In this document: piece after piece, positions 208-10,134 of the stretch | Position numbering within the stretch: the stretch's first letter is position 1 | How the letters are laid out: each line of letters opens with the position of its first letter | From: a virus | Virus genome (UHGV): UHGV-1424210 | Direction: 5' to 3' (one strand) | Length of the DNA: 10,134 bases | Position numbers and translations under genes: made by a program | The notes under the pieces: model-generated | What the model was told of the DNA's origin: nothing | The model's input: only the letters and a program-made list of their open reading frames with translations | Database searches by the model: none

Positions 208-417
208 TTACACTGCCTTACCTGAATTAATGCGATCCCGGCTTTTAACCCATTCCATAACCTCGGACAGCAGCCACCCTACAGAACGACCGCCCAGATT
301 AAGACGTGACGGAAAGCTCCCTTTTTTCTCCAGTTCGTAGCGTGTAGTGCGACACACTCCAGTTAACTTACGACATTCATCCTCACGGATTACGCGATCT
401 TCATTTATTTCACGCAT
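208..417 (-). CDS. alpA: AlpA-family (prophage CP4-57 regulatory protein / excisionase-like) helix-turn-helix regulator, about 69 aa
   Basis: Translation MREINEDRVIREDECRKLTGVCRTTRYELEKKGSFPSRLNLGGRSVGWLLSEVMEWV fits the AlpA/Xis-like HTH pattern. Start set at the ATG at 417-415. The ORF-track start at 504 is a GTG directly abutting AAGAGG, with no usable spacing, and would add 29 non-conserved residues. Confidence 0.75.
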   Translation of the reverse strand: MREINEDRVIREDECRKLTGVCRTTRYELEKKGSFPSRLNLGGRSVGWLLSEVMEWVKSRDRINSGKAV

Positions 418-758
418 ACAAAAACCTACATAAAAATTACGTATATAAACTTTTCTCTTAGCTGTAGATATATGAGATCGGATATTACTTAGATTCTTTT
501 TCACCTCTTAAATTAAAAACACAACCATGCTAAAGGCTTTGTTCGCTAAGGTTCGTAGAAGCTCGTTAGTGTTTAAAATCGTGTCACGAGTTTTTAAGCG
601 ACGCAACAAAAAATGTCGTCATTTGGCATGACACCTTAATTACCTCATTAAAAACAAATAGATAAACCATCAGGTGTTGGAACAATCAAGAAACAGAGAA
701 TAAGAACTCAGAAGAAGACATTTCAATTTTTTTCGATAGTTGACACATATAAAGAGAA

Positions 759-784
759 GATATTTGCAGATATTCCCCGATATT
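759..784. promoter_or_regulatory. Three GATATT hexamers at exact 10-bp phasing (759, 769, 779) in the AT-rich int-alpA spacer
   Basis: gatatttgca gatattcccc gatattctaa; helical phasing suggests a protein-binding array. It lies upstream of alpA and just downstream of the int stop. Confidence 0.35.
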
Positions 785-836: not shown

Positions 837-2075
837 TCAAGAATTTTGGGGGTAAATTCGCGGGGTCATAACAACGATTTTTTCATCATTGTTCTGGAGA
901 AGCTCGAGACGGTCTACCCATAGATTAAGAGCATCACGTTTTGCATCAAGGTAGCGGGAGTGGTTATAGACTCGTTGCATCCCTGGCATCTGGTGGGCTG
1001 TAAGCTGCTCGACAATATGCGGATCCACGCCTAAATCGTTCAGCATGGTTGTAAATGTGTGCCGGATATCGTGTAACGTCCAGGGGGCTTGATTAATTCG
1101 TCTGTGCGCTGTTCTTCCGTACTCTGCTACCGAAGATTGTCCTTTCAGTTCACCAAGCAATAAGCCTGTGTGTCTGTTCTGCTCCACCAGTTGCGTGACG
1201 AACGGCAAAATGCTTTCCGGTATTGGCCTGAATATGGCGACCTTCGTTTTGCTGTGCTCCTTCGGTACTGTCCAGAGCATTTCTTTAAAATCCCACTCCT
1301 GCACCTCAGAGCGCCTTAGCTCAGTGGTACGGCATCCAAAAACAATCAGGAGGCGAATTAGGGCGCTGTAGTATGGCGGGAATATTTTGTCATCCAGGGC
1401 GCGGAGTAATTCCCCAAGCTCCTTATTTGTTAGTACGCGCTCGCTCACTTCTGCTTTTTTTCCCACATCACCGACAACCATATCATCAAGAACGTTGCTG
1501 ATTGCGTATCGTCGTTTTCGGCAGTACTTAAGCGCCTGTTTGCATACCTGTAGCAAAAATCCGGCAGATACAGGGCTTCGCTTTGCCATCTGGTCAAAAC
1601 ATGCCAACCAGTGCCGTAGCTCGCATTTTTCCAACGGCAAAGCGCCAATCTGGCTGATTATGTGTTTATTGATCCGGCTTTTCAGTGATTCGTAGTCAGT
1701 GCGCTTTTCCTTTGCATACGATTCAAGCCAGTAAGTGAGCGCTTCCTTAACTGTCACGGGGGCTAACGCATCCTGTACAGCACGATTAAGCTCATAGCGC
1801 GGATTTTTCCCCTCAGCCAGCCAGGCGCGACACTGTGCTGCTTTTTCCCTGGCTGCTTTCAGGCTCAGATCGGGATAATTGCCCAGTCTCAGACGTTCCG
1901 GTGATACCTGCCTACCAGTTCCGGCCCTGTAAGTGAAATACCAGGTTAACAGGCCGCTGGTGGAATGTCTTACGCTAAGATTGCCACCGTCATTAAAAAA
2001 GGCGTTTTTTGTGGTTGGTGATCCGCTTAATTTTCGTAAAAGAGTGTCGCTAAGTCTATGAATTGCGCTGCTCAT
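837..2075 (-). CDS. int: Site-specific tyrosine recombinase (P4-type integrase), 412 aa
   Basis: Full-length ORF starting with ATG at 2075-2073. C-terminal catalytic-domain signatures: conserved Arg in LIVFGCRTTELRR, His-x-x-Arg box WTLHDIRHTFTT, and a C-terminal Tyr region QRVYNHSRYLD. Overall resemblance to P4/CP4-57-type integrases. Confidence 0.9.
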   Translation of the reverse strand: MSSAIHRLSDTLLRKLSGSPTTKNAFFNDGGNLSVRHSTSGLLTWYFTYRAGTGRQVSPERLRLGNYPDLSLKAAREKAAQCRAWLAEGKNPRYELNRAVQDALAPVTVKEALTYWLESYAKEKRTDYESLKSRINKHIISQIGALPLEKCELRHWLACFDQMAKRSPVSAGFLLQVCKQALKYCRKRRYAISNVLDDMVVGDVGKKAEVSERVLTNKELGELLRALDDKIFPPYYSALIRLLIVFGCRTTELRRSEVQEWDFKEMLWTVPKEHSKTKVAIFRPIPESILPFVTQLVEQNRHTGLLLGELKGQSSVAEYGRTAHRRINQAPWTLHDIRHTFTTMLNDLGVDPHIVEQLTAHQMPGMQRVYNHSRYLDAKRDALNLWVDRLELLQNNDEKIVVMTPRIYPQNS

Positions 2076-2098: not shown

Positions 2099-2355
2099 AT
2101 TAACTACACCATTGACTACACCGTGCATCGTACAAGGGCAAACCGTGACGAACAAGAGCGAACAAGGAAAACAAAATTTTCCTTTATAATCATAGCGATG
2201 AATGCACACAAAACACTACCACGAACACCCGCGAACACTAGATGATAAATAACTATCATTTATATCATTTAGTTAATTAGTCTTTATTTTTCATTATGTT
2301 GCAAATAACAAGCCCGTCAAAAACAGTGATATTAACTACACCATTAACTACACCG
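2099..2355. repeat. Pair of 25-bp direct repeats, ATTAACTACACCATT(G/A)ACTACACCG, at 2099-2123 and 2331-2355
   Basis: The two copies differ at one position and are 232 bp apart. Each is itself a tandem duplication of ATT(A/G)ACTACACC. They flank the putative int promoter. Confidence 0.7.
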
Positions 2356-2386
2356 CTTCACGAACAATATCGAACAACCGCGAACA
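2149..2386. repeat. Seven CGAACA hexamers in helically phased (10-bp) groups upstream of int
   Basis: CGAACA at 2149 and 2159; at 2222 and 2232; and at 2361, 2371 and 2381, with exact 10-bp spacing within each group. Candidate integrase arm-type or AlpA/RDF binding sites. Confidence 0.6.
2293..2320 (-). promoter_or_regulatory. Candidate sigma70 promoter directed toward int
   Basis: On the minus strand: -35 TTGACG (reverse complement of 2315-2320), 16-bp spacer, -10 CATAAT (reverse complement of 2293-2298). Predicted leader of about 210 nt to the int ATG at 2075. Lies between the repeat groups. Confidence 0.35.
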
Positions 2387-2642
2387 AAGATCAACACGCT
2401 TTAATCATTATCATTTTCCGGCTATCCGTCATGAAGCTGGTGGATGATCTGCGTGGTGATTTCCACCATTCAGAGCAGGGGCGGTCATCATGACCATGCC
2501 ATAACAAAAACCCCATATTCGTGGTTTTTCTGTGTCGGGGCTATTCTGCTGTTGCCGTGCTGGTGGATATTCTCCGGTATGCGGCTCCCCATATCGGCAT
2601 CAGGCCCACCAGCGTGAAGCGTTTTTCATTTTTCGCGGGTAT

Positions 2643-2702
2643 AAAAAATCGATGGGGCGGGCAGTCCTGAAGACGTCAGGGTACAGAGATTTGACCCGCC
2701 CC
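2643..2702 (-). terminator. Intrinsic terminator (minus strand): compound GC stem followed by U6
   Basis: GGGGCGGG (2654-2661) pairs with CCCGCCCC (2695-2702), enclosing an inner hairpin CCTGA-agacg-TCAGG (2666-2680). On the minus-strand RNA this is followed by AUCGAUUUUUUAU (plus-strand A-run 2643-2648). Confidence 0.5.
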
Positions 2703-2716
2703 TCCCTGTGCATGAG

Positions 2717-2752
2717 CACAATAAGTAACCGAAGGCGGAATTCCGCCCTCGG
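2717..2752 (-). terminator. Intrinsic terminator (minus strand): 10-bp stem around GGCGGAATTCCGCC plus U-rich tail
   Basis: Minus-strand RNA CCGAGGGCGG-AAUU-CCGCCUUCGG (one G-U pair) followed by UUACUUAUUGUG. First terminator reached after the packaging operon. Confidence 0.5.
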
Positions 2753-2784
2753 TACTTACATATGAGAAACGATATTTCTTCCAC

Positions 2785-2925
2785 CGATACCCTTTATTTG
2801 GGTATCGCGAGTAAGCCCCAAAATCTGGGTGTTACTCTTACTACCCAAACTACGGGTAGTTTCCGTAGTTTCATGGTCGAGTTGCAAATCTGCAACTCAC
2901 CCACCAGCCAACGCAATTTTGCGTT
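2785..2925. other. Cluster of four hairpins / inverted repeats in the untranslated region downstream of the packaging genes
   Basis: H1 CGATACCC-tttattt-GGGTATCG (2785-2807); H2 alternative stems ACTACCC/GGGTAGT (2840-2860) or AAACTACGG/CCGTAGTTT (2847-2871); H3 GAGTTGC-aaatct-GCAACTC (2879-2898); H4 AACGCA-attt-TGCGTT (2910-2925). Confidence 0.45.
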
Positions 2926-2943
2926 ATCGGGAATATCAGCAAG

Positions 2944-3324
2944 TTACCGCCGCAGTCGTTCCGGCTTCTTCCACTGGTAAGTACTTTTCGCGCTCTCCCT
3001 CCGTTGTTGAGAACGGCGACGGTATGCCAGCAACTCAAGGACTCTGGTTCGTATGTTGCGCATATCCACGCCGTTAAGCTCAATACCATCACGGCGCATC
3101 ACCTCAGCAACAACACGCGCGTAATTTTCGGCTATCACGCTGTCCGGCTGCGTGGCCTCCTGTTCGCCAGCCTGCTGGCTGATTCCGGTAATACTGCGGA
3201 TTATCCCGAGCGCTTCGGTCTCGGTCATGGTCATGGTCATGGCCTCCATAGTGATGGCGGGTCCTCCTTGTGGGGTGCCCTGCCACGGGGCGGGAGCATC
3301 GCGGAAAAAGGCTAGTTTTTGCAT
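2944..3324 (-). CDS. Hypothetical protein downstream of terS (126 aa from ATG 3324; more likely about 101 aa from ATG 3249)
   Basis: Same strand as the operon. A strong SD, AAGGAGGA, lies 13 nt upstream of the internal ATG at 3249; the ATG at 3324 has no SD. Contains an in-frame (ATGACC)3 repeat encoding MTMTMT. No recognisable family. Confidence 0.45.
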   Translation of the reverse strand: MQKLAFFRDAPAPWQGTPQGGPAITMEAMTMTMTETEALGIIRSITGISQQAGEQEATQPDSVIAENYARVVAEVMRRDGIELNGVDMRNIRTRVLELLAYRRRSQQRRESAKSTYQWKKPERLRR

Positions 3325-3485
3325 TTTTATTCGTCATCACCACCAATGCAATATATTGATATGACTTGATGTTTTATTTTTCGGTGTCGATTTCGATTGT
3401 TTTTTGTTCATCACTGACGCATAACGCCCACCAGCGCAACGCTGAAAGCCAGTCAGTAAACTGGCTTCGGTCATTGTGCACTACG

Positions 3486-4028
3486 TTACTTGTCTTTATC
3501 CGGCTGAAACTTATCAGGCACATTTCCGGTAGTTTCCATCAGATAATCGGACAGCATTCGCGGGATGTTTTCATCAAGTTTTGTGCATGCGTTACAGGCT
3601 CTGACAACTTCTTTTTTCAGGCCATCCAGCATGACGGGGGTCATCTGTGGGAAGCTCCTTTGCATAGTAAGCGGGAGGCTGTCCATGATTGATGAAATCT
3701 GACTCGCCAGTTTTGAAAGCGCGTACATGCAAAACTCTGTATCAATCACGTCACCGCGATCGCGCTCGTTTTTAAGTTCCTGCGCCTCCGCCTGTGCTGT
3801 CAGTAATCTGATCCTGACTCGTAAGAGTTCATCATCATCAATCTCGCCTTTGTCGTTTGTAAGCTGGCTAATTGCATTGTTAACCCTATTGTCTATCACG
3901 CTGGCAACATCATAAAACGCCTCACGGCCTTTACGTTCAACGGGAGTCACTCCCCACTTGTCGAATGCTGTAGCACTTACCCGGCAGCTTTGCGCCATGG
4001 TTTTTTTGTTCATCAGGTGCGATTTCAT
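3486..4028 (-). CDS. Terminase small subunit, lambda Nu1-like
   Basis: Full-length collinear similarity to lambda Nu1 as recalled: RLLTAQAEAQELKNERDRGDVIDTEFCMYALSKLASQISSIMDSLPLTMQRSFP… versus lambda RLTRAQADAQELKNARDSAEVVETAFCTFVLSRIAGEIASILDGLPLSVQRRFP…; C-terminus ENIPRMLSDYLMETTG versus ELIPGLLSEYIEQSG. The ORF-track start at 4031 is TTG; ATG candidates are 4028 and 4013 (MNKK…, matching lambda MEVNKK…). Confidence 0.85.
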   Translation of the reverse strand: MKSHLMNKKTMAQSCRVSATAFDKWGVTPVERKGREAFYDVASVIDNRVNNAISQLTNDKGEIDDDELLRVRIRLLTAQAEAQELKNERDRGDVIDTEFCMYALSKLASQISSIMDSLPLTMQRSFPQMTPVMLDGLKKEVVRACNACTKLDENIPRMLSDYLMETTGNVPDKFQPDKDK

Positions 4029-4129
4029 CAATATCCCAACTTGGTCAAGGTTTCAGGTTGGTGTGTTGGTGTTATCTTTCCCTTTTTATTCATGGAGATA
4101 GAGCAAACAACAAAACCACCACCACCACC

Positions 4130-4215
4130 CTGAAAAAGCTCATAAATAGCGAAAAACCGCAAGGTCGCCGCCCCGTAGCCTACCGGATCGCCGGAAAGGA
4201 CCCGCCAGCCAGAAC
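4130..4215 (-). other. Lambda-type cos site (cosQ/cosN-like); cosN cohesive-end sequence at 4162-4173
   Basis: Minus strand reads GGGCGGCGACCT at 4173-4162, identical to the lambda 12-nt cohesive end as recalled. Both flanks also resemble lambda: CGGGTCCTTTCCGGCGATCCGGTAGGCTACG upstream and TGCGGTTTTTCGCTATTTATGA downstream. About 135 bp upstream of the terS start, as in lambda. Confidence 0.8.
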
Positions 4216-4229
4216 GGGACCTAATTTCA

Positions 4230-4613
4230 TCAACCAATCAACTTATAGCGACCATCCCGTGCATTGCGACGTACACGCTCAATCTTGAGGCATAGCGCCG
4301 CATCTGGCTTTTTTGGGACAGGTACGCGGCAATATTCAGAAGCTCGAGGAATATTGTTTATCCAGTCGATCACTTCACTTAAATACCAGGCCTTACGCCC
4401 TTCCGTAACCTGTACGCGCTCGGGGAACTCTCCGCGAGCCTCAAGGTTTAGCAATGTGCGACGGCTAAGGGTAGTAAGTTCCATCACCTGATTCATATCA
4501 ACAAGGCGTTCACTTAAACGCATTTTGTCAGCAATAGCCTTTAATTCCTCTACTGCTGGATCCGGATACATCATTTCGGCAATTGGCTTAAGGTCATTGT
4601 AATGATTCTGCAT
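4230..4613 (-). CDS. AlpA-family HTH protein with an approximately 45-aa N-terminal extension (127 aa)
   Basis: C-terminal part VMELTTLSRRTLLNLEARGEFPERVQVTEGRKAWYLSEVIDWI matches the AlpA/excisionase-like HTH pattern. ATG at 4613 is preceded by SD AAGGGGGA at 5-nt spacing. Sits between the D-like gene and cos. Confidence 0.75.
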   Translation of the reverse strand: MQNHYNDLKPIAEMMYPDPAVEELKAIADKMRLSERLVDMNQVMELTTLSRRTLLNLEARGEFPERVQVTEGRKAWYLSEVIDWINNIPRASEYCRVPVPKKPDAALCLKIERVRRNARDGRYKLIG

Positions 4614-4624
4614 TGTATCCCCCT

Positions 4625-4966
4625 TTACACACGAGCCAGCGGCTGAACAGAAATACCTGAGCCAACAAACGCGGCAACCTTTGCCGACAGTTCTTTTACA
4701 GACTCAGGCCAGTTCAGAGCATCAACATTTAAAACACCTGTCTTATAAACCTGTGCCTGTGTTTTTTTCGCTGTGTCGATTTGTACAGCGGAAACATAAA
4801 CCGCTTTGCCTGCGCTCGTTCCATCCCATACCACTAGCGCACCAGTTGCATCTTCCTGCATCAGTGGCGTAAACGCAGGTATTACCCCTTTATTGGCTGA
4901 AAATATCCCCAGCGTAGTAACCAGTGCTTCAGTGCCAGACATGAGTTCAGTGTAATGAGTAGCCAT
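4625..4966 (-). CDS. Head decoration protein, lambda gpD-like (113 aa)
   Basis: Similar length to lambda D (110 aa), with shared motifs THY, TPLM, WDGT, KTG, WPE and a C-terminal AF-G-x-IS. SD AAGGGGGAG upstream of the ATG at 4966. Starts 10 bp after the capsid gene stop. Confidence 0.8.
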   Translation of the reverse strand: MATHYTELMSGTEALVTTLGIFSANKGVIPAFTPLMQEDATGALVVWDGTSAGKAVYVSAVQIDTAKKTQAQVYKTGVLNVDALNWPESVKELSAKVAAFVGSGISVQPLARV

Positions 4967-4975
4967 TGCTCCCCC

Positions 4976-6022
4976 TTAGCCAATGCGAACGGTAACAAAA
5001 CGATTGATGCGGGCCGGTATTGGCTGTGGTGCTGAATGTGTCTGCACATATTCAATAGCCGGATCACCAGGCACAATATAGTTTTTCGGTGCAAGTTCGG
5101 CTTTAGTCAGCCCCATCCGGATTAGCTCCGGATCCTGAATACCGCCATAAGCGACAATCCCCTGAAGAGCCGTATTGCCAAGCACCATCAAATCAGGATC
5201 AAGGAAATATTTTTCAGTTCCGTCCTCGTCGGTATAACGCCCGCTGTAAACAACAATCGCAACATCGCCCATATACCCTTTAAAACTCACCGAATCACCA
5301 AGGTCTTTAAGGGCCGTTTCCAGTTCGGAATTAGAACCACGACGAGTATCCAGAGCCTCTTTTATCGCCCTGAATGAACGGTATTTCTTCCATACATTAC
5401 CGCCCATAATGATAATATTAGTGACGCCCTCACTAAATTCTGCGTAGCTCTCAATATCATCATTTGGATCAAAAGCTTCTTTATCCTTACCTGACCACTC
5501 AGCACCGCCAGACTGAGTGATGATATTTTGTGGTTTAATATTCCAGTCCAGCTCATAACGTTCAATACCATCGCCCTCAATGATATTTTTCCCCGTTGTG
5601 ATTGCCTGAACGGCAAGCCATTCAATACGTGCACGAATAGCTTTAGCCTGATTTACAATCGCCTGTTTAACTTTAATATTACGCGCTCCAAAAGCATTGT
5701 ATTGCTCAGGTGATACACCAGCAGGGCGCACAGCTAACTTATTTGGATCAATGCTGCTTTTCGGTTTCATATAGCCAGGGCGAATTGTTTTTGATTCGTA
5801 TCCCTCATCTCGTGAAACTTTACTGCCCACCATAGGAGAGCAAAACGCCGCGATCGGGATATTTGGATCGTCGATCGTATCAAGAATAATGTCTCTCGAT
5901 TCAAACATTACCGAGCGAGTGAAAAACAAACTGGTAAACAACGCATTTAATTTTTTTTGCACATCTTCAGCATTAGCCACCTGCACAAGCTGTGTAGGCG
6001 AATATAAGTCAACCATACTCAT
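4976..6022 (-). CDS. Major capsid protein, lambda gpE-like (about 348 aa)
   Basis: Collinear similarity to lambda gpE as recalled, e.g. NIITQSGGAEWSGKDKEAFDPNDDIESYA and ALDTRRGSNSELETALKDLGDSVSFKGYMGDVAIVVYSGRY versus lambda NITQSGGTEWSKRDKSTYDPTDDIEAYA and KLDTRRGSNSELETAVKDLGKAVSYKGMYGDVAIVVYSGQY. Start set by homology at MSMVDLY (ATG 6022); the alternative ATG at 6016 has better SD spacing. The ORF-track start at 6103 is TTG. Confidence 0.9.
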   Translation of the reverse strand: MSMVDLYSPTQLVQVANAEDVQKKLNALFTSLFFTRSVMFESRDIILDTIDDPNIPIAAFCSPMVGSKVSRDEGYESKTIRPGYMKPKSSIDPNKLAVRPAGVSPEQYNAFGARNIKVKQAIVNQAKAIRARIEWLAVQAITTGKNIIEGDGIERYELDWNIKPQNIITQSGGAEWSGKDKEAFDPNDDIESYAEFSEGVTNIIIMGGNVWKKYRSFRAIKEALDTRRGSNSELETALKDLGDSVSFKGYMGDVAIVVYSGRYTDEDGTEKYFLDPDLMVLGNTALQGIVAYGGIQDPELIRMGLTKAELAPKNYIVPGDPAIEYVQTHSAPQPIPARINRFVTVRIG

Positions 6023-6187
6023 CCTCTTTACATTCATTACAAATAATTGTGAATATATTCTATTACCGATGTCTGCTATGCGAATACATGCAACCAAGTG
6101 CAATGTTGTATAAAATATGCTGTGACAACTTCAGTGCTGATAATTCGTGTTAATGTATTTACTTCCTTTGGTCGGGATTTATGTAGC

Positions 6188-6216
6188 ATGCCGGAAAATC
6201 TATTTTTTTCCGGCAT
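6188..6216. other. 11-bp-stem hairpin between the SSB-like and capsid genes (terminator-like)
   Basis: ATGCCGGAAAA (6188-6198) / TTTTCCGGCAT (6206-6216) with a 7-nt loop. A T-rich tract follows on the plus strand only, so its role in the minus-strand operon is uncertain. Confidence 0.35.
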
Positions 6217-6233
6217 CTTTTTGTTTGCAGAAT

Positions 6234-6656
6234 TTAAAACGGTATATTATCGCCGTACGGATCATCATTCCCCGACTGTTGTTTTGCCCTGTTCAGTGCG
6301 TCAGTGGCCTGCCCCTGCTGGCCTTTTTTGCCGCCCGGTCGCGCTGTTCGCGCACTGATCACGCTGTCTGCGATAACCTGCCAGCCCTGCCGCGTTTCGC
6401 CGTTCTGGCCTGTCCACTGGCTTACCTGCATGTTACCCGCCACGCTCACCAGTTCGCCTTTGTGGTGTTTTGCCAGTGCGTCGGCCTGTCTGCCAAACGC
6501 CAGGACGGATAACCACATCATCGCCGTTCCGTCATCTGCCTGGCTGCACGGAAGGGGGACCGCCATACTAGCCATCGCCATTTGTGTACCCTTGCTGGTG
6601 GTCTTTAACTGCGGGTCAGCCACCAGCCGTCCGTAAGCCGCTATCTGTGCTGTCAT
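6234..6656 (-). CDS. Single-stranded DNA-binding protein (SSB)-like, 140 aa
   Basis: OB-fold-like core WLSVLAFGRQADALAKHHKGELVSVAGNMQVSQWTGQNGETRQGWQVIADSV resembles E. coli SSB [51 protein letters not shown]. Gly/Gln-rich linker and acidic C-terminal tip DDPYGDNIPF (compare SSB DFDDDIPF). SD GGAGAG upstream; the start ATG overlaps the upstream stop (ATGA). Confidence 0.65.
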   Translation of the reverse strand: MTAQIAAYGRLVADPQLKTTSKGTQMAMASMAVPLPCSQADDGTAMMWLSVLAFGRQADALAKHHKGELVSVAGNMQVSQWTGQNGETRQGWQVIADSVISARTARPGGKKGQQGQATDALNRAKQQSGNDDPYGDNIPF

Positions 6657-6895
6657 GCTGTCTGCTCTCCGGTTTTAACGTTGATGGTTGTCACCTGTTC
6701 CGCTTCGGCAATCTCCCGTTCTGTCAGCGTGGCAAAGTTTGCAGCTGCCGTTGTCATGAATGCGCTAATCAGTTCGGGATGTGCTTTCGCATATCCTTCC
6801 CCGGCGTTGCGGTCGATGATTTTTATCGCCACTCTCAGCCAGTGCTCTGTAAGGTCAATAGCGCGGTAGTGTGGTTGTTTGCGGTTTTCCTTCAT
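6653..6895 (-). CDS. Hypothetical protein, 80 aa, translationally coupled to the SSB-like gene
   Basis: ATG-initiated ORF whose stop overlaps the SSB-like start (ATGA). First gene after the iteron region. No recognisable motif. Confidence 0.5.
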   Translation of the reverse strand: MKENRKQPHYRAIDLTEHWLRVAIKIIDRNAGEGYAKAHPELISAFMTTAAANFATLTEREIAEAEQVTTINVKTGEQTA

Positions 6896-6935
6896 AGTTC
6901 AGATCTCAATTTTTCGTATATATATACAAAACAGT

Positions 6936-7250
6936 GCGGGTTATGCGGGTTAGCGGGTTATCTTCGCTTGCTAAGTATTTTTTATTCCTTAATATCAATA
7001 CATTACAAAATTAACTGTTTACTGTTTAGCCGTGGCGTAACCCGCAAAATGCTCAAAATAACCCGCAAACGGGGTTTTTTCTGCGGGTTACGCGTGGCTG
7101 TTTGCTGTCACTTCCTGTTATTCATCTGCGGGTTATAATCGCACTTTTGCGGGTTATAACTGCCGTTTTGCGGGTTACGTGCGGGTTATTGATTTCCTTT
7201 TTATTCATGCAGTTAATGCACTTATACACAGAGTAACCCACATAACCCGC
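6936..7250. repeat. Iteron array (9-bp GCGGGTTAY) flanking an AT-rich stretch: candidate replication origin
   Basis: Direct copies at 6936-6944, 6945-6953, 6954-6962, 7083-7091, 7128-7136, 7149-7157, 7170-7178 and 7181-7189. Inverted copies (TAACCCGC) at 7036-7044, 7058-7066 and 7242-7250, plus a degenerate one near 7233-7240. AT-rich region 6962-7030. Immediately downstream of the Rep stop at 7274. Confidence 0.7.
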
Positions 7251-7273
7251 AACTTTTCACCTCACACAGGGGG

Positions 7274-9397
7274 TTAATCTTCTGCCTCAGGCTGGAACAT
7301 CAGCACGTAAAAAACATGCTGCTTCCCCCCAATTTTGCCGAGAGCCTTTTTCTTGTAACGGCGATCGTTACCCGCTTCCAGCATTCCGGCAGCACTCAAC
7401 GCGCGGGCAAAGTGGGACGGGTTAAATCCCTGTGCGATCTCCCCCTCAAACACATGAGGAAACGTGTAAAAACGGAACTCATCATCTTCATTTCTGATAC
7501 TCCCCTTTCTGTATCCGGCAAGGTCTTTAATCGGTAAATCACGTTCATCACTGTTTGGGTAAGGAAGGTATCGACTGAACCCGAACGACGACAAAAACGC
7601 CTCAGCCTGTTCAACCATCTGTTTAAATTCCCTGTTACCCGTGCCGAACTCCTTCACCCAGGCATTAAAGTTATGCTGTATTGCGTCCCGGCATTCCTGC
7701 GCGGCCCAGCCAGTTACATGACCGGAAAGCACAAGCGCGGCCTCCAGTATGGCGAAACGCTCACCCACGCGGTGGACTTGCTCGCCGTAGCTCTCCGGTA
7801 TCAGGTTGCGCCACCGTTCGCGGCATTCCCTTACCGTATCCTTTGCCTCCTGCTGGTGGCCTGCCAGCCATTTAACCCACTCACGACCCGCTGCCCCGTG
7901 ATTTTCTGTCCAGGCATCCTTTAACGCGTCTGCGTGCGCCTTTCCGGTGCTGTATTCGTGAAAGTGCGTGGCTTTTTCCATCGGAACGTTAAGCAGGCGG
8001 ACAAGCTGCCCCGCTTTGACTTTTATCCCCTCCGTTTTGAGGAATGTCTCAACGTCCATTTCTCCGGTGCTGATTGCCACCGTGCGCCAGTGTTTTATCT
8101 CCCGGTTGCCGCCGTCCTTCGCCCCCTGTAATTTCCCGGAACCGTTAAACAACGTATAGGCTGACGTGGACACCTCCCGCGCGTTTCCGGCCTGGCCTAT
8201 TTCATCCAGGGGTAACAGCCCGTCGTTGTGCGCCTCTGCCTCGTTAGCGATACCTAACGCTGTGCCGTACCAGGTCAGCCGTTGTGCGTCCGGCTCTCCC
8301 CATAAACTTGATGCGATGTTCTGCGTGGTGGTTTTCCCTGCCGATGACTGTTCGAAAAGATGTACCCCGAAGCCGTCAGCACCAACAAGGCCAATCAAAG
8401 GTGCTGCCAGTGACGTGGCAACACCCAGCATCATGGACGGATTGCCACCAGCCAGCCGCGCCACGCAGTCGCGCCAGCCCTCCGACGTACCCGCAACCGA
8501 ATAGCCATTAACAGTGGCACTTTTTCCGGTAAACAGGATCGGTTTTTCAGAATCACCAATGATTGAGCCGTCCGGCATGATATACGCGCCAAAATGCCAG
8601 CCCGTTGTTGTGCTTAGCTGCCATTCCTCATGGCTTCCGCTTAACTGCATCCAGTCAGCCAGGATAGCCCTGTATTTGCCGTTTGTTGTCACGTTCAGCC
8701 CGTGATCTTTAAGCAACCGCCAGCCGTCACGGTCGCCAATGCCACCACACGGGATCGCCATTGTGATGACTTCATGGTTTGCTAATTTTTTCCAGCGCAT
8801 CACGCGGTAATGCTCTTTACCGATCGTCCCCGTTCCCAGTAGTTCAAGCGGAGAACATAACCACGTCTCAGGCCGGATAATTTCGCCTGACTGCTTATCC
8901 ACTTTGGGCGTTACCCAGAAAACACCATCGACGCGACTTTCAACGCGGGGCTTTAATTCATCATCCTGATAGCATGGCTCTTTTTTCTTTACAGGCAGTT
9001 CAACTACCTTTTTCTTTTCCGCCTGCTCTGCCCGTTCACGTTCCAGATATTCGCGCCAGTTCTCCCGTTTCTGGCTGTGCATTCCTTCAGGGTAATAATC
9101 AGCATCCCTGACACCTGCCGCTGCCAGTTTCTGCCCGATGGTATTAACAAGCCCCGGACGCAATAACCCCGCCTGGTAGAGACGCACGCGATAGCGTCCG
9201 TCCGGTACGATTTGCAGGTTGTCCAGTTCGGCAAGTTGTTGCTCTCCAAGCCAGACAGGTGGCACGTTATCGCCAGCCAGTCGCCCGTCCTGTTCCTGCC
9301 ACTGCTTCGCATGTGCCCACGCATCACTACCCGCAAAAATGATGACTTCCGTCATTTTGTCACGCGGCTGGTGTTTTAAATTTGGCGCTTTTTTCAT
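7274..9397 (-). CDS. Replication initiator (primase/helicase-like ATPase; resembles DUF927-type proteins of CP4-57/PICI-like islands), about 707 aa
   Basis: Long ORF with P-loop-like motif FEQSSAGKTT and Walker-B-like LLPLDEIG. Adjacent iteron origin. Start set at ATG 9397 (SD GGAGAGAG, ATGA overlap with the upstream ORF stop); the ORF-track start at 9412 is GTG. Family assignment is from memory, not from a search. Confidence 0.8.
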   Translation of the reverse strand: MKKAPNLKHQPRDKMTEVIIFAGSDAWAHAKQWQEQDGRLAGDNVPPVWLGEQQLAELDNLQIVPDGRYRVRLYQAGLLRPGLVNTIGQKLAAAGVRDADYYPEGMHSQKRENWREYLERERAEQAEKKKVVELPVKKKEPCYQDDELKPRVESRVDGVFWVTPKVDKQSGEIIRPETWLCSPLELLGTGTIGKEHYRVMRWKKLANHEVITMAIPCGGIGDRDGWRLLKDHGLNVTTNGKYRAILADWMQLSGSHEEWQLSTTTGWHFGAYIMPDGSIIGDSEKPILFTGKSATVNGYSVAGTSEGWRDCVARLAGGNPSMMLGVATSLAAPLIGLVGADGFGVHLFEQSSAGKTTTQNIASSLWGEPDAQRLTWYGTALGIANEAEAHNDGLLPLDEIGQAGNAREVSTSAYTLFNGSGKLQGAKDGGNREIKHWRTVAISTGEMDVETFLKTEGIKVKAGQLVRLLNVPMEKATHFHEYSTGKAHADALKDAWTENHGAAGREWVKWLAGHQQEAKDTVRECRERWRNLIPESYGEQVHRVGERFAILEAALVLSGHVTGWAAQECRDAIQHNFNAWVKEFGTGNREFKQMVEQAEAFLSSFGFSRYLPYPNSDERDLPIKDLAGYRKGSIRNEDDEFRFYTFPHVFEGEIAQGFNPSHFARALSAAGMLEAGNDRRYKKKALGKIGGKQHVFYVLMFQPEAED

Positions 9398-9693
9398 TTC
9401 TGCTCTCTCCACGCGGCAATCATGTTTTTCAGTTCCTGTAGTTTTTTATCCACATCCACACGTGACACATGGTTATTTCTGGAAGTCGGGATTTCCCGCC
9501 GGAATCTGCAAATAAAGATCTCCACGTTCAGCGAACTAAGAAATGAATAGCCATCACGGATAAAATACACACGGTCAAACATCAGTTCTTTTACCGTTAC
9601 TCTGTTACCGTTCTTATCCAGATAAATAGCGCCGGGGATAATTTGGGGGTGTGCATAACCGCTGGCAGTCAAGCCAGATAAATACGTTCTCAT
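9394..9693 (-). CDS. Hypothetical protein, 99 aa, translationally coupled to rep
   Basis: ATG at 9693 with an upstream GGGGAT; stop overlaps the rep ATG. No recognisable motif. Confidence 0.55.
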   Translation of the reverse strand: MRTYLSGLTASGYAHPQIIPGAIYLDKNGNRVTVKELMFDRVYFIRDGYSFLSSLNVEIFICRFRREIPTSRNNHVSRVDVDKKLQELKNMIAAWREQK

Positions 9694-9699
9694 GATTAT

Positions 9700-10020
9700 T
9701 TATCCCCGATTTGAATCAGTATTCGCTTTCTTTATAGCATTTAATGCATCTGTGGCATTTTCAATGGTGCACCGTAACGAAATATCAAAATGTCCAAGCA
9801 TTGCCAGTAACAAACCGATATTACCCATATCAATGCGCATGGCCTTTTCGTCATAGTCCTCATTTTCTGACGCATGCCACATCAGGCTACCAATTGACGC
9901 AACAGCCATTGATATATTGTCAGTAGCCCCATCCGCAGCGGAATAAACCTTTTTAGCAATATCATGCTCACAGTTAAAATGCGGATTAATCAGGTACTGG
10001 TAATTTGACATATCAGGCAT
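9700..10020 (-). CDS. Hypothetical protein, 106 aa
   Basis: ATG-initiated ORF. Its start overlaps the stop of the upstream partial ORF by 8 nt. Six bp separate its stop from the next start. Confidence 0.55.
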   Translation of the reverse strand: MPDMSNYQYLINPHFNCEHDIAKKVYSAADGATDNISMAVASIGSLMWHASENEDYDEKAMRIDMGNIGLLLAMLGHFDISLRCTIENATDALNAIKKANTDSNRG

Positions 10021-10134
10021 GGCACACCCCCTGACGAATACGGGCAGCGAATACCATCACGCAGCCAGCCGGGGATTGCAGGCGTGCTTCCTGTTCGCTG
10101 GTGGCCTCAATGGTAATCACGCGCGGTTGTGCCG
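10013..10134 (-). CDS. Partial CDS (C-terminal 39 codons) entering from the right edge
   Basis: Open minus-strand frame from the window edge to TGA at 10015-10013 (…VITIEATSEQEARLQSPAGCVMVFAARIRQGVCHA), overlapping the next gene start; indicates an operon of at least four genes. Confidence 0.4.
   Translation of the reverse strand, partial: AQPRVITIEATSEQEARLQSPAGCVMVFAARIRQGVCHA

Follow-up and report, generated by a model that had tools for sequence, protein, structure and literature searches.

The element studied here matches Gram-negative cos-type phage-inducible chromosomal islands (PICIs) of the EcCICFT073 kind, which also contain capsid and decoration genes and have the same gene content and order (PMC6092414). 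Typical Escherichia coli PICIs encode one AlpA protein (PMC11773190). Satellites with two regulatory genes have been mentioned in passing (PMC10085698), and the study on helper-embedded PICIs (HE-PICIs) assigned all Phage_AlpA genes to "integration" (PMC10111431). Virus genome UHGV-1424210, a stretch of 10,134 nucleotides that was analysed as a whole and that we call the window, is the excised, attP-bearing form of an EcCICFT073-like cos PICI, a phage satellite of E. coli. It encodes two AlpA paralogues. One of them, AlpA1, is encoded next to the integrase gene int. The other, AlpA2, is encoded inside the capsid operon and is the subject of this report. In a literature search we found no paper that characterises a capsid-module AlpA, its subfamily or its promoter.

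We propose, tentatively and with a little less than even confidence, that AlpA2 is a dedicated and probably auto-activating regulator of the late capsid-packaging operon of the satellite. The features on which this proposal depends are the following.

4162–4173 and 4197–4203, minus strand: lambda-type cosN and cosQ (GGGTCCT), identified by sequence match; cos spans 4140–4204
4230–4613, minus strand: AlpA2, a 127-amino acid winged helix-turn-helix (HTH) protein of the AlpA family
4618–4624, minus strand: Shine–Dalgarno sequence AGGGGGA of alpA2, 4 nt ahead of the start codon and immediately behind the stop codon of the decoration gene (4625–4627)
4625–4966, minus strand: head decoration protein, lambda gpD-like (Pfam HDPD, E = 2.3e-15; PHROG 49)
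4976–6016, minus strand: major capsid protein (MCP), lambda gpE-like, 346 amino acids in RefSeq (Pfam Phage_cap_E, E = 6e-41)
6057–6084, minus strand: candidate sigma-70 promoter P_cap from a consensus scan, with -35 TTCGCA (6079–6084), a 16-nt spacer and -10 TAGAAT (6057–6062)
6078–6113, minus strand: four direct repeats at exact 10-bp phasing (TTATAC 6108–6113, TTGCAC 6098–6103, TTGCAT 6088–6093, TCGCAT 6078–6083), the proposed AlpA2 operator
6188–6216, no strand assigned: hairpin between the gene for the single-stranded DNA-binding protein (SSB) and P_cap; a canonical intrinsic terminator occupies the equivalent position in other genera

Family, Fold and Conservation of AlpA2

The open reading frame (ORF) at 4230–4613 is intact and starts with ATG. 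Its product matches Pfam Phage_AlpA (PF05930) with residues 36–85 (E = 1.4e-8; score 34.9 bits, cut-off 21) and PHROG 2790, a family labelled excisionase/regulator, with residues 11–109 (E = 1.8e-48). The initial annotation, which was made from the letters of the DNA, had already recognised an AlpA-type HTH in this protein, and this assignment survives the profile searches. In a sequence search against solved structures AlpA2 matched the GIsul2 excisionase (PDB 8c3t, E = 1.6e-10). None of the other solved chains gave a meaningful match at E values up to 10; the remaining hits were an enolase-superfamily enzyme and rotavirus VP6 with E ~1. AlpA2 had no match in NCBIfam, nothing reached the gathering threshold in Rfam, and PADLOC returned only two weak sub-threshold matches, PDC-M06B and mad1 (E ~0.003–0.005).

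We then modelled the protein with AlphaFold2. An alignment of 36 sequences that included distant members gave a model with a mean predicted local distance difference test score (pLDDT) of 77.5 and a core at or above 90; an alignment of 23 close homologues used before had given a pLDDT of 52 and no useful model. The model predicts two N-terminal helices (residues ~8–33), a winged HTH domain (~36–86), a linker and a C-terminal helix (~105–119). The domain contains the beta-alpha-alpha-beta-beta-alpha order of a winged helix (strand 37–38, helices 40–47 and 51–60, strands 67–70 and 73–77, helix 78–86). The HTH is central, not C-terminal as the initial annotation had placed it, and the N-terminal extension measures ~35 instead of ~45 residues. 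The best structural match found by Foldseek is again 8c3t, with a root-mean-square deviation of 0.9 Å and 44% identity. Further structural neighbours are RdfS, BldC, Pukovnik Xis, MerR-type proteins and the DNA-binding domains of the small terminase TerS and of Rpp. The BldC structures among these matches (6ama, 6amk) are complexes with promoter DNA. Both the profile matches and the fold place AlpA2 in the AlpA/excisionase winged HTH family.

AlpA2 departs from the usual form of this family, a single domain of ~60–75 residues, by its length of 127 residues and its conserved extensions. The HTH is followed by a conserved tail of ~40 residues that had been overlooked (WINNIP...LCLKxERVRR in AlpA2, WINNIP...LxLKxER...G across the subfamily). 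This tail is a signature of the subfamily that is kept as far as Serratia and is absent from ordinary AlpA proteins. To compare loci, we collected ~95 related ones from RefSeq, GTDB genomes, IMG/VR and Logan assemblies, including four contributed by a scan of genome contigs, and typed their genes by tblastn; single loci are given by L numbers. In 92 of 93 loci all 127 codons of the gene are intact. Compared with L003, the ratio of nonsynonymous to synonymous substitution rates is 0.06, which indicates strong purifying selection; constraint is strongest in the HTH and weakest in the N-terminal extension. Only two cysteines are conserved. As the initial annotation had noticed, the satellite indeed encodes a second AlpA by int (208–417, or to 504 in the longer ORF). 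The two paralogues are 32% identical over the 56 residues of the HTH.

Phased Repeats and a Candidate Promoter Upstream of the Capsid Gene

Every AlpA2 locus shows the same architecture upstream of the capsid gene: a hairpin, three to five direct repeats at 10-bp phasing, a sigma-70-like promoter, a Shine–Dalgarno sequence and the ATG (6016 in the window). This repeat-promoter region stands out as a footprint within otherwise unalignable sequence and is conserved from Escherichia to Serratia. The -10 block (TGnTAnnAT), which resembles an extended -10, is conserved across genera in the alignment. The repeat unit comprises 6–7 bp (aTTGCAC). In genera other than Escherichia the array lies exactly one helical turn further upstream. 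The repeats are 17 nt away from the -10 in E. coli, against 27 nt in the other genera.

An exact TTGCAY-N4-TTGCAY occurs once in the 10-kb window, at the array upstream of the capsid gene. With up to one mismatch the pattern gives three matches, compared to a shuffle expectation of 0.42; two of these overlap at the array, and one lies in the decoration gene (4846–4861). We also scanned 13 loci for TTGCAY pairs with a gap of 3–5 nt, and in most of them such pairs occur only upstream of the capsid gene. The exceptions are L002, whose decoration gene contains one extra match, and L005, L006 and L013, the most divergent loci, which have variant units instead. The pair pattern was found nowhere in 80 cassettes of the EcCICFT073 type, which contain the gene c1501 instead of alpA2. 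The repeat-promoter architecture is specific to AlpA2 cassettes.

The sequence of the unit changes along with the protein. AlpA2 proteins with the recognition helix SRRT accompany the unit TTGCAC, SRGT (Cedecea) accompanies TTGTAC, and SRQT (Serratia) accompanies TTAGAC and TTGTGC. In Buttiauxella and Scandinavium, the motif LLDME together with the wing GRTAW is found with TTATAC.

Two other readings of the repeats were rejected. A sigma-54 promoter (TGGCAC-N5-TTGCA) resembles TTGCAC-N4-TTGCA, but its invariant GG is present in no locus, and the arrays contain three to five units instead of two. The repeats are not iterons of a replication origin either; the origin iterons of the satellite have a different sequence (TGCGGGTTAY). 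A search for targets of the P_cap unit in lambda and in the lambdoid prophage of CFT073 returned chance-level matches only, besides the CII box of pRE.

A Portable Capsid Cassette

In all 91 scored loci, in Serratia and in two further loci, alpA2 forms an uninterrupted run with the capsid and decoration genes, and their spacing is constant; alpA2 always follows the decoration gene and is never found beside int. In the window alpA2 starts 11 nt after the decoration gene, and the two genes are likely translationally coupled. The strong Shine–Dalgarno sequence recognised by the initial annotation is indeed present (AGGGGGA). The cos site begins ~25 nt past the alpA2 stop codon in the window and 25–75 nt past it in nearly all loci including Serratia. 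Positions 4162–4173 correspond to the exact lambda cosN sequence AGGTCGCCGCCC, and the 65 bp of segment 4140–4204 share 91% identity with lambda cosQ-cosN, with similarity ending before cosB. This match, together with the HDPD match upstream, bears out the placement of alpA2 between decoration gene and cos. In related loci, cos consists of cosQ GGGTCCT and one of two cosN types. These cosN variants, GGGCGGCGACCT and GGGCGTCAGGCG, lie 59–75 nt past the stop codons of nearly identical alpA2 genes, which implies exchange of packaging sites between helper types.

AlpA2 is encoded in 408 of 5426 complete E. coli genomes (~7.5%). It also occurs in Enterobacter, Citrobacter, Klebsiella, Salmonella, Pluralibacter, Kosakonia, Kluyvera, Cedecea, Buttiauxella, Scandinavium and Serratia. 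A tblastn search of 50,697 phage records gave no match.

The remaining modules of the satellites vary around this constant core. Across AlpA2 loci, the integrases are 20–100% identical to that of the window and include the HE-PICI clade, which inserts into prophage capsid genes (PMC10111431). AlpA1 is 44–100% identical, absent or replaced by an HTH_17 protein; the primase is of the DUF927, D5_N/Pox_D5 or Toprim type; and TerS is 37–100% identical, absent or replaced by an Rpp-like gene (L007–L009). Among E. coli elements, AlpA2 proteins remain 95–100% identical where the integrases share only 20–42% identity and the arm repeats differ. A cognate excisionase would be expected to co-vary with its integrase and att arms, and since AlpA2 does not, we conclude that it is not one. 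By the same reasoning, AlpA2 is probably not tied to one TerS/cosB specificity, because it combines with varying TerS and cosB types. The nucleotide block shared by E. coli elements typically extends from the origin side of the SSB gene (~6880) to just past cosN (~4130) or past terS (~3460). Judged from these sequence comparisons, the capsid-linked AlpA2 subfamily belongs to a portable MCP-decoration-cos cassette that shuffles among integrase and packaging backgrounds.

In the EcCICFT073-type cassettes (n = 80), c1501 occupies the slot between the decoration gene and cos, and a 68-amino acid ORF precedes the capsid gene. In L004 these genes lie at 2084–2497 and 463–669, respectively. The c1501 protein (137 amino acids, PHROG 1999) weakly resembles the C-terminus of head-maturation proteases (Nu3/scaffold region). 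This cassette type is found with TerS as well as with RppA variants. Because BLASTP gave no alignment between c1501 and AlpA2, we can rule out that c1501 is an AlpA2 homologue. The published c1501::tetA data, in which c1501 served as a marker insertion site (2018 study), are therefore uninformative on AlpA2.

Possible Functions of AlpA2

How might AlpA2 act on this cassette? Winged HTH proteins with an excisionase fold, BldC among them, typically assemble on phased direct repeats into head-to-tail multimers. The excisionase-type proteins P2 Cox and P4 Vis also control late promoters by way of phased boxes, and BldC likewise regulates promoters. We envisage the late operon as a portable cassette that would comprise the hairpin or terminator, the phased repeats, the sigma-70-type promoter, the capsid gene, the decoration gene, alpA2, cos and, where present, terS. 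The first AlpA2 molecules may arise from slight read-through of the AlpA1-driven early operon. AlpA2 monomers would then line up head-to-tail along the phased repeats, which adjoin or overlap the -35 of P_cap. Bound AlpA2 would recruit RNA polymerase, and the operon would activate itself by positive feedback. The conserved C-terminal tail could mediate oligomerisation or contact to the polymerase. Since alpA2 lies inside the operon that it would control, this arrangement would constitute an autoregulatory loop. The position of the site and the weak -35 in most genera favour activation over autorepression.

Several observations weigh against this proposal. The repeats and alpA2 reside in one recombination block, so their co-occurrence may in part reflect simple linkage. 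The covariation between protein and repeat comes from three or four lineages and is not independent of overall divergence. The repeats can also be read as TTGC-N6-TTGC, which is the lambda CII box. A strong Shine–Dalgarno sequence in a capsid operon suggests an abundant protein, and abundance would suit an architectural DNA-binding role better than that of a regulator. The closest solved relative of AlpA2 is an excisionase. Finally, the second AlpA of EcCIMP1 is dispensable for the PICI cycle (PMC11773190).

Alternatively, AlpA2 could be a recombination directionality factor that serves a helper prophage or the integrase clade of HE-PICIs, rather than the satellite's own integrase in general, and that times excision late. 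Consistent with this idea, RdfS and Pukovnik Xis appear beside the GIsul2 excisionase among the structural matches, PHROG 2790 has excisionase in its label, and alpA_1 of EcCIMP1 can replace the helper Xis (PMC11773190). In addition, the doubled HE-PICI arm motif TGTATTGCA (PMC10111431) resembles the P_cap unit TATTGCAC. However, this motif has a 12-bp period and follows the integrase clade, as expected of integrase arm sites, and the TTGCAY motif was not found in the window's own att arms. The near-identity of AlpA2 next to integrases that are only 20–42% identical, with different arm repeats, and the absence of an AlpA2 homologue from the 50,697 phage records also speak against a directionality factor, which we consider unlikely. 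The short distance to cos in nearly all loci from Escherichia to Serratia suggests yet another role, in which AlpA2 is an abundant packaging or interference factor that marks satellite DNA near cosQ/cosN or blocks the helper cos and thereby biases terminase toward the satellite. The strong Shine–Dalgarno sequence inside a structural operon would fit this role, as would a fold that is common to the DNA-binding domains of Nu1/TerS and Rpp (Rpp: PMC6739421). Yet AlpA2 occurs alongside either of two cosN types and several cosB/TerS types, and also in loci that lack TerS or have an Rpp-like gene, and hence does not co-vary with packaging specificity. Furthermore, no P_cap-like repeat was found near cos, AlpA2 has no sequence similarity to RppA, and EcCICFT073 transfers with c1501 in the slot and without an AlpA2 homologue. 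Such a packaging role is distinctly unlikely.

The resemblance to the CII box can be turned into an explanation in its own right: the phased repeats may sense a helper or host activator such as lambdoid CII (TTGC-N6-TTGC), and AlpA2 may have an unrelated role. The sequence TTGCACTTGGTTGCAT closely resembles the lambda pRE CII box TTGCGTTTGTTTGCAC, the only comparable site found in lambda. At CII promoters the box lies ~13 nt from the -10. The corresponding distance of 17 nt in E. coli or 27 nt in other genera does not agree with this spacing, nor does a 6–7 bp unit in three to five copies agree with a CII box. Moreover, the unit drifts to TTAGAC, TTGTAC and TTATAC together with changes in AlpA2. 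We judge this explanation very unlikely. An even slimmer chance attaches to the idea that AlpA2 is a Q-like processive antiterminator that loads at P_cap and carries polymerase through terminators and cos into terS. The N-terminal segment of AlpA from Pseudomonas aeruginosa (PaAlpA) is said, in work by Wen et al. from 2022, to enter the RNA exit channel, and AlpA2 also has an extension before its HTH. PaAlpA belongs to the same Pfam family and is an antiterminator (PMC7969949). However, the PaAlpA element lies between -35 and -10 (PMC7969949), whereas the AlpA2-linked repeats are found over the -35 or farther upstream. Within AlpA2, conservation is lowest in the N-terminal extension, 8c3t remains the only solved chain with a meaningful match, and no clear terminator was found between alpA2 and terS.

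Autoactivation of the late operon by AlpA2 thus remains our preferred reading. A broader version of it is doubtful: the cassette would be self-contained, self-regulating and exchangeable, and AlpA2 would be its late switch, which takes the part of lambda Q or P4 delta with an excisionase fold and works by positive feedback largely independently of AlpA1. In HE-PICIs, AlpA2 may also read the TGTATTGCA arms and so couple late transcription to excision. If autoactivation is correct, these satellites contain a separately controlled late transcription unit, as opposed to the current picture of one int-adjacent AlpA that drives a single rightward operon. AlpA2 and its ~40-bp site would then provide a concrete handle on when and why satellites express their own capsid proteins, and the annotation "AlpA family" would hide at least two functionally distinct classes within one element. 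The initial annotation had suggested split roles for the two paralogues, excision control for one and activation of packaging genes for the other. A division of this kind is plausible, because the copy by int follows the integrase and att repeat types, and the capsid-linked copy goes with MCP, decoration gene, cos and the repeat promoter. That AlpA2 activates the packaging genes (terS, capsid) is what we infer.

The Satellite and Its Integration Module

The window is 99.9% identical to a 10.7-kb island of E. coli C 237-04 that is inserted between clpS and cspD. Compared to the integrated copy it is circularly permuted: positions 1–2263 correspond to the int end and 2242–10134 to the opposite end, with an overlap of 22 bp (2242–2263). 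The permutation and the 22-bp overlap between attL and attR identify the window as the excised attP form. About 596 bp of the element, the Icd/YlcI region, are missing from the window, and the whole element measures ~10.7 kb. It has the features of a Gram-negative cos PICI: int, alpA, pri-rep with an iteron origin, a late zone with capsid genes and terS, a helper-type cos and a size within ~10–15 kb. The gene set was derived from the ORF map and from profile searches (Pfam, PHROG), and all genes are co-oriented on the minus strand. The features outside the capsid operon are the following.

208–417, minus strand: AlpA1, the int-proximal AlpA, 69 amino acids as annotated, longer ORF to 504 (Pfam Phage_AlpA, E = 4e-16)
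837–2075, minus strand: tyrosine integrase (profile search)
2099–2390, plus strand: attP with the 22-bp core at 2242–2263
2944–3324, minus strand: small conserved ORF (ORF map and profile searches)
3486–4028, minus strand: Nu1-like small terminase TerS (Pfam Phage_Nu1, E = 1e-22; PHROG 57)
4032–4139, minus strand: diverged cosB-like spacer before terS, without similarity to lambda cosB
6234–6656, minus strand: SSB (profile searches)
7274–9412, minus strand: DUF927 primase-helicase (profile searches)
9394–9693, minus strand: DUF4222 gene (profile searches)

The structural and packaging proteins resemble those of lambda; MCP is 42% identical to gpE, and TerS is 37% identical to Nu1 over the full length. 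TerS is present in some E. coli PICIs and absent from others (2018 study, PMC6092414). The cosB-like region contains a GGTGGTGGTGGTGG run and ACACCAAC direct repeats, and relatives that lack TerS have a lambda-like cosB sequence. The region 4032–4139 may be the TerS binding region, which would fit a Nu1-like TerS that recognises its own cosB. Between the primase-helicase gene and the next ORF (6934–7253) lie twelve TGCGGGTTAY iterons in both orientations, presumably the origin of replication of the satellite. The sole DNA similarity to deposited phages is a stretch of 155 bp (3255–3409; 80–81% in most records), which covers the start of the last small ORF (PHROG 1561) and the sequence just upstream. 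A strong GC-rich hairpin of 11 pairs without a clean T run (2728–2753, minus strand) is situated ~190 nt past the last ORF, on the near side of the att core; the rightward operon may end there.

The attP arms contain doubled ACTACACC motifs at 2103, 2115, 2335 and 2347, on both sides of the core, and seven CGAACA units within 2149–2386 in pairs at 10-bp spacing. The geometry of the doubled arm motif ATTAACTACACCATTGACTACACC on each side of the core parallels that of the doubled TGTATTGC in HE-PICI attP sites. In the spacer between int and alpA1 we found three (G/A)AATATC units at 10-bp phasing (759–784, minus strand) and a CGAAC-N6-CGAACA pair (~534–557, minus strand), whose CGAACA unit also occurs in the att arms. 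These two spacer repeats are candidate operators for AlpA1 or for the integrase zone. The repeats at 2099–2386 and 759–784 had been suggested as targets of AlpA2, a suggestion that does not agree with their distribution. CGAACA, ACTACACC and AATATC pairs are confined to loci that share the window's Int/AlpA1 type and are missing where AlpA2 is 96–100% identical but Int and AlpA1 differ; these repeats therefore belong to the integration module. As a separate observation, TATTGCA is the core both of the HE-PICI arm motif TGTATTGCA and of the phased repeats that precede the capsid gene (window 6078–6113), which may reflect coincidence or cross-talk of Int or AlpA2 with the two kinds of site. The arm motif is located immediately upstream of int and at the far att end in L003, L014, L018, L023, L030 and other loci.

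Comparison with Known Systems

The AlpA protein of EcCICFT073, the master activator in PICIs of Gram-negative bacteria (Fillol-Salom 2018, PMC6092414), belongs to the same Pfam family as AlpA2 and comes from the same kind of element. It is short, int-adjacent and the counterpart of AlpA1. AlpA2, in contrast, is only 32% identical in the HTH, has N- and C-terminal extensions and is linked to the capsid genes in the late zone; EcCICFT073 itself has no AlpA2 and holds c1501 in the slot. A PICI master regulator of this type is encoded next to int at the head of the early operon, auto-activates PalpA and is needed for induction; the position is taken by AlpA1 (208–417) and not by AlpA2. Like alpA2, the alpA_1 gene of EcCIMP1 (PMC11773190) is the second of two AlpA-family genes in an E. 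coli PICI and does not encode the master regulator. However, alpA_1 lies on the opposite strand at the far end of an island without capsid genes, and its product resembles the helper Xis, whereas alpA2 is co-oriented inside the capsid operon and has no phage homologue.

Proteins with related folds differ from AlpA2 in other ways. The GIsul2 excisionase (8c3t), RdfS and BldC have the same winged HTH fold, but they comprise ~55–75 residues without the extensions of AlpA2 and come from different genomic contexts. The Rpp proteins (RppA/B/C, PMC6739421) are, like AlpA2, PICI-encoded winged HTH proteins beside cos. Unlike AlpA2, they have an N-terminal HTH and a C-terminal coiled coil that binds phage TerS, and their gene lies downstream of cos. 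Homology of AlpA2 to Rpp was rejected, as BLASTP gave no alignment to RppA and 6hn7_B was a weak fold match (E = 0.2). In L007–L009 an Rpp-like gene co-occurs with alpA2.

The initial annotation had also pointed out that the position of alpA2 mirrors that of delta in P4. P4 delta is a satellite-encoded late-gene activator inside a capsid-modifying operon, and Delta and Ogr are zinc-finger proteins unrelated to AlpA that act on the late promoters of the helper. No Ogr/Delta zinc-finger domain was found in AlpA2, for which Phage_AlpA was the only Pfam match. In P4 delta lies between sid and psu, and it is psu, not delta, that adjoins cos (PMC10085698). The positional parallel is thus inexact, and what holds is an analogy of function: AlpA2 may be regarded as a functional analogue of P4 delta, not as a homologue. 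The closer analogy is P4 Vis, one AlpA-family protein that reportedly acts in excision as well as in the control of late promoters. In P4 one protein does both jobs, whereas in the satellite described here two paralogues appear to divide them.

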